Below, piece after piece: positions 38,117 through 39,739 of a stretch of 64,000 nucleotides of DNA; the first letter of the stretch is position 1; every line of letters starts with the position of its first letter. The stretch comes from Escherichia coli (GTDB taxonomy: Bacteria; Pseudomonadota; Gammaproteobacteria; Enterobacterales; Enterobacteriaceae), in assembly GCF_003334405.1 (NCBI RefSeq), contig NZ_QOWM01000004.1, one strand, 5' to 3'. The translations under genes and the position numbers were made by a program. The notes under the pieces were generated by a model. That model was not told where the DNA came from and searched no databases. It saw nothing but the letters and a program-made list of their open reading frames with translations.

Positions 38117-38821
38117 ATGGACAGATTCCCACGTTCTGATTCAATCGTACAACCCCGGGCTGGCTTGCAAACTTATATGGCTCAAGTCTATGGCTGGATG
38201 ACCGTTGGCTTGTTGCTGACCGCATTTGTTGCCTGGTATGCGGCTAATTCCGCGGCCGTGATGGAGCTGTTGTTCACTAACCGTGTCTTTTTAATCGGTC
38301 TGATCATCGCGCAATTAGCATTGGTTATTGTGTTATCAGCGATGATTCAAAAGCTGAGCGCAGGTGTAACGACGATGCTCTTTATGCTTTATTCGGCGCT
38401 GACGGGTCTTACGCTTTCCAGTATATTCATTGTCTATACCGCTGCTTCTATCGCCAGTACTTTCGTCGTTACTGCCGGGATGTTCGGCGCAATGAGCCTG
38501 TACGGTTACACCACGAAGCGCGATTTAAGTGGCTTTGGCAATATGCTGTTTATGGCGTTAATCGGCATTGTGCTGGCATCGCTGGTCAACTTCTGGTTGA
38601 AAAGCGAAGCATTGATGTGGGCAGTTACCTACATCGGCGTGATTGTCTTTGTCGGATTGACGGCGTATGACACGCAGAAACTGAAAAATATGGGTGAGCA
38701 GATTGATACCCGCGACACGTCGAACCTGCGCAAATATTCCATTCTTGGCGCGTTAACCTTGTATCTGGACTTCATCAACCTGTTCCTGATGTTGTTGCGG
38801 ATCTTCGGCAACCGCCGTTAA
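38117..38821 (+). CDS. ybhL: Bax-inhibitor-1 (BI-1/TMBIM) family inner-membrane protein
   Basis: 234-aa ORF with seven predicted TM helices and a charged C-terminal tail (…FGNRR); GGAG RBS. Confidence 0.9.
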   Translation: MDRFPRSDSIVQPRAGLQTYMAQVYGWMTVGLLLTAFVAWYAANSAAVMELLFTNRVFLIGLIIAQLALVIVLSAMIQKLSAGVTTMLFMLYSALTGLTLSSIFIVYTAASIASTFVVTAGMFGAMSLYGYTTKRDLSGFGNMLFMALIGIVLASLVNFWLKSEALMWAVTYIGVIVFVGLTAYDTQKLKNMGEQIDTRDTSNLRKYSILGALTLYLDFINLFLMLLRIFGNRR

Positions 38822-38841
38822 TTCTTTTTCACCATCACTAT

Positions 38842-38867
38842 CCCGGCCATGTGTCGGGATTTTTTTC
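38842..38867 (+). terminator. Intrinsic terminator after ybhL
   Basis: Hairpin CCCGG-ccatgtgt-CGGG followed by ATTTTTTT. Confidence 0.65.
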
Positions 38868-39025
38868 TTACTAAAAACGACACTTAACAAGTACCAGGTA
38901 TAAAATATGCCTTATGGACGAGCGGAAGCGTTTTCTGTATCCATAAATGCAAAAGTATTTTGTATGCGTGGTTTTAAATTTATTGATGGTGAATATTAAT
39001 ATTTTTTCTAAGGATAACTAAAAGA

Positions 39026-39739
39026 ATGGAATCATACTCGCAAAACAGCAATAAATTAGATTTTCAGCACGAGGCCAGGATATTAAACGGTATATGGCTC
39101 ATTACCGCTTTAGGTTTGGTGGCAACCGCAGGACTAGCCTGGGGAGCTAAGTATCTCGAAATTACGGCAACCAAATATGATTCACCACCAATGTATGTCG
39201 CCATAGGGTTATTATTACTTTGTATGTATGGCTTAAGTAAGGATATCAACAAGATAAATGCCGCCATCGCGGGCGTAATATATCTGTTTTTACTCTCTTT
39301 GGTGGCGATTGTCGTTGCAAGTTTAGTTCCTGTATATGCCATTATCATCGTGTTCAGCACTGCGGGCGCGATGTTTTTAATCAGTATGCTGGCCGGTTTA
39401 TTATTTAATGTTGATCCTGGTTCTCACCGTTTTATCATTATGATGACGTTGACAGGGTTGGCCCTGGTAATCATCGTGAATGCGGCATTAATGAGTGAAC
39501 GGCCCATTTGGGTAATAAGTTGCTTAATGATTGTGTTATGGTCAGGCATTATCTCGCATGGACGAAATAAGCTCCTTGAATTGGCGGGGAAATGCCATAG
39601 TGAAGAGTTGTGGAGTCCGGTTCGTTGCGCTTTTACAGGTGCATTAACACTCTATTACTATTTTATCGGCTTCTTTGGGATACTTGCCGCGATAGCTATA
39701 ACGCTTGTCTGGCAAAGGCATACGCGTTTTTTTCATTAG
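39026..39739 (+). CDS. ybhM: BI-1-like inner-membrane protein, AT-rich distant paralogue of ybhL
   Basis: 237-aa polytopic membrane ORF; coding sequence visibly AT-rich with many TTA/ATA codons relative to neighbours. Confidence 0.85.
   Translation: MESYSQNSNKLDFQHEARILNGIWLITALGLVATAGLAWGAKYLEITATKYDSPPMYVAIGLLLLCMYGLSKDINKINAAIAGVIYLFLLSLVAIVVASLVPVYAIIIVFSTAGAMFLISMLAGLLFNVDPGSHRFIIMMTLTGLALVIIVNAALMSERPIWVISCLMIVLWSGIISHGRNKLLELAGKCHSEELWSPVRCAFTGALTLYYYFIGFFGILAAIAITLVWQRHTRFFH

Follow-up and report, generated by a model that had tools for sequence, protein, structure and literature searches.

In Escherichia coli, ybhM is probably what remains of a small, polymorphic, AT-rich islet in the ybhL-ybhN gap

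BI-1-family proteins of the YetJ type are modelled as pH-gated calcium-leak channels, with a di-aspartyl pH sensor in transmembrane helices (TM) 6 and 7 that we take to be Asp171/Asp195 in YetJ numbering and to lie in the motifs 'YD' and 'LYLDF'. Escherichia coli encodes a protein of this type, YbhL, and beside its gene lies ybhM, an uncharacterised E. coli K-12 gene and the subject of this study. We analysed ybhM in a 64,000-nucleotide stretch of the E. coli contig NZ_QOWM01000004.1 (assembly GCF_003334405.1), referred to below as the window. Two other kinds of system come close to what we found: AT-rich xenogeneic islets silenced by H-NS, and orphan arrays of immunity genes. Among immunity proteins, Sip4 has been shown experimentally to be an integral inner-membrane protein acting against Ssp4, a pore-forming effector of a type VI secretion system (T6SS), and the paper describing it mentions neither BI-1 proteins nor orphan copies in Salmonella or E. 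coli (PMC12669606).

A sequence-only reading of the window had described ybhL and ybhM as adjacent, co-oriented BI-1-family membrane proteins; the coordinates proved exact and both products match the family model PF01027. It had also proposed that ybhM is a horizontal acquisition or an H-NS-type silenced paralogue and not a simple tandem duplicate, which the low identity of the two proteins (25%), the empty gaps of related genomes and a published binding survey all favour. That reading treated ybhM as a lone gene, and there we depart from it. Multi-gene islets in two other genomes (L086 and GF4-3 below) and a relic in the K-12 sequence mark ybhM as a remnant, and we consider it likely that in this K-12-like genome ybhM is accessory: a polymorphic, AT-rich islet of modest size would occupy the gap separating ybhL from ybhN, directly behind the ybhL terminator, and of its cassettes only ybhM would have survived here.

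Base composition and boundaries of the inserted block

Composition was compared among the 59 annotated genes of the window. In GC content, GC at third codon positions (GC3) and codon adaptation index (CAI), ybhM sat at or beyond the edge of the distribution of neighbouring genes: its GC (0.426, z -3.2) was undercut only by the 49-aa acrZ, its GC3 (0.454) was the third lowest and its CAI (0.156, z -2.6) the lowest, while its rare-codon fraction (0.143, against 0.051 in ybhL) was the highest. CAI was calculated with Sharp-Li weights, and a window-internal codon likelihood was added as an independent check; the leave-one-out synonymous-codon log-likelihood of ybhM was again the lowest of the window genes (z -3.65, compared with -1.5 for ybhL). 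The resemblance of ybhL to typical host coding sequence, claimed earlier, was borne out (GC 0.487, GC3 0.617, CAI 0.277, rank 10 of 59), its overall GC being low because of first codon positions (GC1), that is, membrane-protein amino-acid content. TTA (16 codons vs 6 in ybhL) and ATA (9 vs 1) are enriched in ybhM as had been stated; AAT, listed with them, is not (5 vs 3, which is not unusual). The ybhL-ybhM spacer (38822-39025, 204 bp) has a GC of 0.328, in keeping with its description as AT-rich.

Both genes are rich in Leu, Ile and Phe and low in GC1 (0.45 and 0.43), as would be expected if the low GC merely reflected the amino acids of a membrane protein, or chance fluctuation in so short a gene. 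We regard that explanation as having next to no probability. GC at second positions is identical in ybhM and ybhL (0.391) while GC3 differs by 0.16, and nine larger membrane proteins of the window have GC3 values of 0.56-0.71; the contrast therefore sits at synonymous sites and is not a membrane-protein effect. The likelihood statistic above is conditioned on amino-acid content, the low-GC block coincides with an insertion/deletion boundary, and the same bias recurs in orthologous slot genes of other genomes. Synonymous-site statistics together with the empty-site comparison thus rule out amino-acid bias as the cause.

The boundary came from comparison with related genomes. Scanning species-representative genomes with YbhL gave 80 Enterobacterales loci (L-numbers are labels of these sampled loci), 45 of which also contain ybhN; ybhN stood next to ybhL in most loci sampled. 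In 35 of the 45 the two stop codons are only 41-149 bp apart, and in 38 the gap holds no open reading frame (ORF) of at least 60 aa, so ybhM is not universally conserved beside ybhL. One empty site is in L003, a genome labelled E. coli that belongs to a sister Escherichia lineage, with flanks 92-93% identical to the window (E. albertii, 91%). There the terminator hairpin of ybhL directly abuts the ybhN stop, reading GGGATTT and then, across the junction, AAACATCACAT. Alignment to this clean site delimits a block in the window at about 38863-39769, with ends ambiguous by a few bases (T-run, AAAC). Block GC is 0.399, against 0.485 and 0.521 in the flanks, and the minimum-GC 907-bp stretch of the entire 64 kb begins at 38861, which agrees independently with the boundary drawn from the empty site.

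The earlier claim that ybhL has its own terminator also stood. A terminator scan found a hairpin with an 8-bp stem (38840-38860) and, after it, a run of seven T's that ends at 38866, with a folding energy of -11.6 kcal/mol (z -3.1 vs shuffles), and the hairpin is kept at the left junction in the compared Escherichia and Salmonella loci. No Rfam family matched the region at E<=1. Table 1 collects the features of the locus.

Table 1 Features of the ybhL-ybhN interval in the window
Feature	Position	Strand	Basis	Description
ybhL	38117..38821	+		conserved core gene; canonical BI-1/YetJ-type 7-TM inner-membrane protein; left flank of islet
ybhL intrinsic terminator	38840..38866	+	terminator scan, folding energy, empty-site alignment	
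AT-rich inserted block, ~907 bp, GC 0.40	38863..39769	.	empty-site alignment	variable islet, K-12-type form
K-12-type spacer segment	38868..38992	+	blastn among slot regions	contains ybhM promoter region
sigma-70 promoter-like site for ybhM	38877..38906	+	consensus scan and PMC3946193	ACGACA, then TATAAA/TAAAAT
ybhM	39026..39739	+		237 aa; divergent BI-1-superfamily membrane protein; type B of the YbhM-like subfamily
relic of deleted downstream gene	39757..39771	+	right-junction comparison, blastn	AAA GAA CTT AAC TAA
ybhN	39775..40731	-	ORF and annotation	conserved convergent core gene, LPG_synthase_TM domain; right flank of islet

The window as a whole is a K-12-like chromosome segment running from nadA to glnQ, collinear with NZ_CP145663.1 (109 mismatches/64 kb), and within it ybhL and ybhM lie 3' of moaABCDE and 5' of the convergent ybhN-clsB-ybhP. 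According to the reference annotation, a molybdenum-cofactor riboswitch precedes moaA at 35145-35289. A second low-GC, poorly codon-adapted patch occurs at 17855-20044, comprising ybhD of the LysR family, whose GC is 0.447 and whose CAI of 0.193 is undercut by one window gene only, and ybhH, which is divergent from it (GC3 0.439); further 907-bp stretches with GC <0.45 lie near 2-3, 21, 30 and 59 kb.

Islet states, origin and constraint

In Escherichia, Salmonella, Kluyvera georgiana, Pseudocitrobacter and Phytobacter the slot between ybhL and ybhN is occupied by one to at least 11 genes, among them one to three YbhM-like paralogues that are mutually 25-40% identical (Table 2). All slot genes of Escherichia and Salmonella have a GC of 0.30-0.46, against 0.49-0.61 in core neighbours, where ybhL marks the low end. 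Small, very AT-rich (GC 0.28-0.39) non-membrane ORFs stand beside YbhM-like genes in L086 (6708-7299) and L090 (4977-6521); they are a DUF3969 gene (118-125 aa) and ORFs of 152, 73 and 186 aa, only the SUKH-4-like domain of the last being assignable.

Table 2 Contents of the slot downstream of ybhL in selected genomes
Genome or locus	Slot contents
K-12 type (window)	ybhM alone (type B)
E. coli L085	type A (234 aa), ybhM
Escherichia L086	type A, ybhM, type C (232 aa), DUF3969, 73-aa ORF
E. coli GF4-3 (L090), six genes	type A, ybhM, type C, DUF3969, 152-aa ORF, 186-aa ORF with SUKH-4
E. albertii L004	phosphoethanolamine (pEtN)-transferase-like gene, ybhM C-terminal fragment, type C, DUF3969
Salmonella L083	YbhM-like (235 aa), two Sip4-like membrane ORFs
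Kluyvera georgiana L094	YbhM-like (235 aa), then ybhQ; ybhN absent
Pseudocitrobacter relatives	empty, 3, 8 or at least 11 genes; up to three YbhM-like paralogues, mutually 30-38% identical

The single-gene state of K-12 most plausibly arose by deletion from a larger islet, because a trace of a downstream ORF persists in it. At 39757-39771, 15 nt are identical to the final four codons and stop of the 73-aa ORF of L086, within a 24-nt match at 95.8% identity that extends 13 nt beyond the core shared with the empty site. The left side of the block varies as well. E. coli genomes in which a type A cassette precedes ybhM lack the spacer segment 38868-38992, and in blastn of slot regions the similarity to L085, L086 and L090 starts only at 38993; some genomes of the population search described below match the cassette only from query position 196. 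Part of this segment (38900-38984) has 72% identity over 85 nt to the sequence 5' of the E. albertii ybhM fragment.

A second chromosomal address is known from Salmonella enterica, where a three-gene module like the one in the ybhL slot (a 238-aa BI-1-like gene and two Sip4-like ORFs) lies 3' of guaBA (L096, 6001-7900; L097, 3661-7900); the L097 copy adjoins a TsiV immunity gene and a transposase. As far as slot sequences can tell, this evidence shows cassette gain, loss and relocation. The founder of the YbhM-like genes themselves may have been imported horizontally, or it may have arisen in place when a YbhL-type gene was duplicated long ago.

Under an in-place origin, a tandem duplication of ybhL in an ancestor of Enterobacteriaceae would have founded the YbhM-like lineage, relaxed selection and AT-biased mutation would have driven its rapid divergence and lowered its GC3, local duplications would have yielded types A, B and C, and most genera would have lost their copies; ybhM would then be a silenced vertical paralogue and no horizontal acquisition. 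YbhM-like genes do lie directly 3' of ybhL in all five genera with occupied slots named above, the subfamily is confined to Enterobacteriaceae, and the left junction of the Salmonella islet resembles the type A junction of Escherichia. GC3 values near 0.45 are within reach of AT-biased mutation under weak selection. Of the 55 full-length YbhM matches outside the subfamily, 48 are YbhL-type (>=40% identity to YbhL). Yet E. coli YbhL is not specifically the closest of these relatives, ranking 11 of 56, and paralogues within one islet are as divergent as those between genera. The scenario further requires many independent clean losses, given the 38 ORF-free gaps, including a difference between empty and occupied slots within one genus (Pseudocitrobacter L016 vs L017). 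It also leaves aside the members found elsewhere (the Salmonella guaA module and a Superficieibacter copy near vgrG) and the companions of GC 0.28-0.33, which are unrelated to BI-1 and cannot derive from ybhL. We judge an in-place origin rather unlikely, while a recent tandem duplication is excluded at 25% identity.

Several observations nevertheless count against ybhM as the remnant of an acquired islet. YbhM-like genes are found near-exclusively beside ybhL and their nearest outside relatives are YbhL-type, both of which fit an in-place origin. The sole empty Escherichia site is in a sister lineage and E. albertii has the islet, so the L003 site could be a secondary loss. Neither the K-12 block nor the larger islets contain an integrase, transposase, tRNA or flanking direct repeats, and the search for cassette-bounding repeats or attC-like elements returned just short coding-sequence similarities between paralogues. 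No phage homologue of ybhM and no donor was found. All matches in the plasmid collection are non-mobilizable Escherichia records, most of 0.7-4.9 Mb and hence probably chromosomal sequence; a phage or plasmid origin was accordingly set aside.

Further cargo of the slot is heterogeneous and unrelated to conflict, which is a further point on that side and means that the slot may simply tolerate insertions: besides the pEtN-transferase-like gene of Table 2, it includes a HycA-like ORF in Silvania confinis (L015, 6874-7296; recognised by eye, with one HycA_repressor match in a batch Pfam scan), in L029, by inspection of the sequence, a catalase with a lipocalin-like gene, and in L040 a weak Phd/ParE pair. 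Across genera, insertions seem to favour this convergent-terminator gap.

In E. albertii NBRC 107761 (L004, 7063-8724) the pEtN-transferase-like gene encodes 553 aa at a GC of 0.37, and its product is CptA/EptA-like (E 1e-41), below curated cutoffs. Only a C-terminal fragment of ybhM is left in this genome, 3' of that gene.

Within E. coli proper ybhM is nearly universal, the ybhM block being matched in 5405 of 5426 complete genomes. Block matches reached only 90-95% identity in 1239 genomes, compared with 185 for a query that included ybhL. Type A occurred in 754 of the genomes, and the segment with type C, DUF3969 and the 73-aa ORF was matched in 29. By our arithmetic, roughly 600 genomes match <80% of the block for reasons other than type A; sampled records were disrupted by the insertion sequences (IS) IS1 and IS200C and by internal deletions, and ybhM::IS5 is documented in RR1/HB101 (PMC5379014).

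Selection was estimated from nonsynonymous to synonymous rate ratios (dN/dS; Nei-Gojobori, seven strains). The ratio was 0.017 for ybhL and 0.031 for ybhN, but 0.31 for ybhM (ratio of means; 0.13-0.64 in pairwise comparisons with the window), 0.34 for type A and 0.25 for type C. The slot genes are 10-18 times less constrained than their neighbours, yet they are under purifying selection.

These data bear on whether ybhM might have no function at all and, silenced and decaying, be there solely because it has not yet been deleted. Several features fit such decay: a CAI below and a rare-codon load above those of every other window gene, the relaxed dN/dS relative to its neighbours, the recurrent IS1, IS5 and IS200 insertions and internal deletions, the roughly 600 shortened blocks, the many truncated YbhM variants and the binding of H-NS to its promoter region in vitro. 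A ratio clearly below 1 in every pair, with similar values for types A and C, does not fit it. The block is retained in almost every genome with the ORF annotated intact in most sampled records, and seven invariant and six nearly invariant columns persist across a subfamily whose members are only 19-36% identical to YbhM. The gene also responds to its environment: in enterohaemorrhagic E. coli (EHEC) Sakai, ybhM (ECs0865) was up 4.6- to 5.1-fold by day 5 on lettuce, in an induction table that it shares with csgD, bssS, espX and pchD (PMC6891304). A functionless relic is, in our view, improbable.

Synonymous divergence (dS) between the window and L086 (3642-4346) was 0.53 for ybhL and 0.19 for both ybhM and ybhN, a contrast pointing to a mosaic made by recombination, with a breakpoint close to the islet.

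The YbhM protein, its expression and a possible role

YbhM residues 19-222 match positions 3-205 of the 207-position Pfam model Bax1-I (PF01027; E 1.1e-20), which YbhL matches over nearly its full length (E 1.1e-62) and three Pseudocitrobacter paralogues match too (best E 1.1e-8). Direct comparison of YbhL and YbhM gave the 25% identity over 151 residues, and hhalign of the YbhM subfamily against a YbhL/YetJ profile (including YetJ residues 20-211) gave a probability of 99.5% (E 1.3e-22, 212 columns). Judging by these alignments, the two proteins are true but very distant homologues. The subfamily is small. A HMMER search of 1.84 billion representative proteins returned only 97 matches at E<=1e-3; the closest full-length relatives outside the Escherichia YbhM cluster are 25-35% identical, and the named full-length members all come from Enterobacteriaceae (Escherichia, Salmonella, Kluyvera georgiana, Superficieibacter and Pseudocitrobacter). 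YbhM matched no NCBIfam family at E<=0.01, and sequence searches of the PDB with YbhM and with the subfamily profile gave no match. An antisense gene described in a 'TEGT transporter' (PMC6294744) was set aside since it concerns yccA, at another locus.

The AlphaFold2 (AF2) model of YbhM has seven helices (3-43, 54-76, 79-100, 103-127, 134-154, 159-192 and 198-235; model confidence, pLDDT, 85.3). Among the points that tell against our overall interpretation is that this model fails to superpose on YetJ. At the two aspartate columns of the pH sensor YbhM has G ('SHGRNKL') and Y ('LYYYF'); the corresponding residues are E and S in type A, K and D in type C, and E and G in the Salmonella protein. 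YetJ, YbhL and P0098 retain both aspartates. The loss of these residues sets ybhM apart from ybhL and from the BI-1 calcium-leak model, and YbhM is probably not a YetJ-like pH-gated calcium-leak channel.

For expression, published in vitro data exist. Table 3 of Shimada et al. 2014 lists the ybhL>ybhM spacer as a site recovered with the RpoD holoenzyme by genomic SELEX (systematic evolution of ligands by exponential enrichment), giving the promoter as ACGACA-16-TATAAA, and marks the same spacer 'HNS', an in vitro genomic SELEX site of H-NS (PMC3946193). Our consensus scan read the site at 38877-38906 as ACGACA-18-TAAAAT. In the arrangement we propose, transcription of ybhL would end at its own terminator and ybhM would be served by its own sigma-70 promoter in the AT-rich spacer. 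We further propose that H-NS would silence ybhM in vivo and hold it largely silent in laboratory conditions, the roughly 5-fold rise on lettuce being indirect evidence, at most, of de-repression; H-NS binding to this spacer is known in vitro only, which has to be set against the proposal.

As to function, the company kept by YbhM-like genes points, if to anything, to interbacterial conflict. Both Salmonella loci encode Sip4-like ORFs (E 8e-8, 3e-5, 3.5e-8 and 3e-4), the 186-aa ORF of E. coli GF4-3 has a SUKH-4 domain (E 3.7e-5), and the TsiV gene of L097 is a precomputed match. In Superficieibacter electus (L092, 6001-11275) a YbhM-like gene (239 aa) is followed by a gene for an 864-aa protein and then by VgrG (417 bits), while the ybhL slot of that species (L021) is gene-free. 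For the 864-aa protein neither Pfam nor NCBIfam gave a match, and it could be T6SS cargo of an uncharacterised kind. From these associations we propose, as a doubtful but testable idea, that the most fitting role for YbhM would be that of a protective, immunity-type inner-membrane protein against membrane-targeting toxins. Still more tentatively, YbhM-like proteins might constitute an unrecognised BI-1-fold family for immunity or protection against membrane-targeting, pore-forming toxins, for instance T6SS effectors of the Ssp4 type, kept in polymorphic, H-NS-silenced orphan arrays 3' of ybhL in Enterobacteriaceae, of which K-12 ybhM would be the last cassette.

Much here pulls the other way. 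The Sip4 matches score 21-34 bits, far below the curated 240-bit cutoff, and a homologue search with the Salmonella Sip4-like ORF revealed no effector link, its named relatives being from Salmonella only. No toxin gene adjoins ybhM in E. coli, and there is no cognate effector in the window or beside any YbhM-like copy examined in a ybhL slot. Most companion ORFs are without a Pfam family. PADLOC and PHROGs gave nothing for any BI-1-like or small slot protein, and membership in a known defence or phage family was therefore rejected.

In Enterobacter sp. BIGb0383 (L028, 6763-11553) the slot between ybhL and ybhN contains an ORF of 611 aa together with three lipoproteins, paralogous to one another and ~300-330 aa long. 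A Pfam scan of the 611-aa ORF and one lipoprotein gave PLDc_2 and Sel1/DUF6396, and as far as domain matches go the set resembles a T6SS effector of the Tle5/Tli5 type accompanied by immunity genes in tandem.

Comparison with known systems

Placing ybhM in a polymorphic AT-rich islet bound by H-NS in vitro would explain its odd composition, its frequent disruption in wild and laboratory strains alike and its probable silence in standard conditions, and it defines a small subfamily, limited to Enterobacteriaceae, with a fixed genomic address and high turnover. The islet is an ordinary kind of feature, a well-delimited instance of the small AT-rich accessory islets. If immunity to membrane toxins holds, the subfamily would gain a testable function, and one more fold would be added to those that confer immunity to pore-forming effectors; if that link is false, the locus still illustrates neatly how a small accessory islet can sit in a gap between convergent terminators.

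Three protein systems offer partial parallels. YbhM resembles YbhL and YetJ in its end-to-end match to PF01027, its seven long model helices, its length and a similar C-terminal G-A-L-T-L-Y motif. YccA, a modulator of the FtsH protease (NF007765), is likewise an inner-membrane paralogue of the BI-1 family in E. coli, and modulation of a membrane protease is conceivable for a BI-1 protein that has no channel sensor; YbhM does not match the YccA model, and YbhL reaches only 23 bits against a cutoff of 353. From the orphan immunity arrays of T6SS and polymorphic toxins, Sip4 included, YbhM differs in having no sequence relationship to any known immunity family. The islet is like those arrays in its tandem, small, AT-rich, fast-diverging genes that vary in presence and absence and come without a toxin, in the company of Sip4-like ORFs, SUKH-4 and TsiV, and in having one member near VgrG.

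The H-NS-silenced AT-rich xenogeneic islets are the remaining comparison. The ybhM block differs from them in its size, just 0.9 kb in K-12, in carrying no integrase, tRNA or repeats, in its position in a convergent-terminator gap, and in that the gene it chiefly carries is paralogous to the core gene beside it. It shares with them AT-richness within a GC-normal context, poor codon adaptation, a patchy distribution with an empty site, in vitro binding of H-NS and environmental induction.

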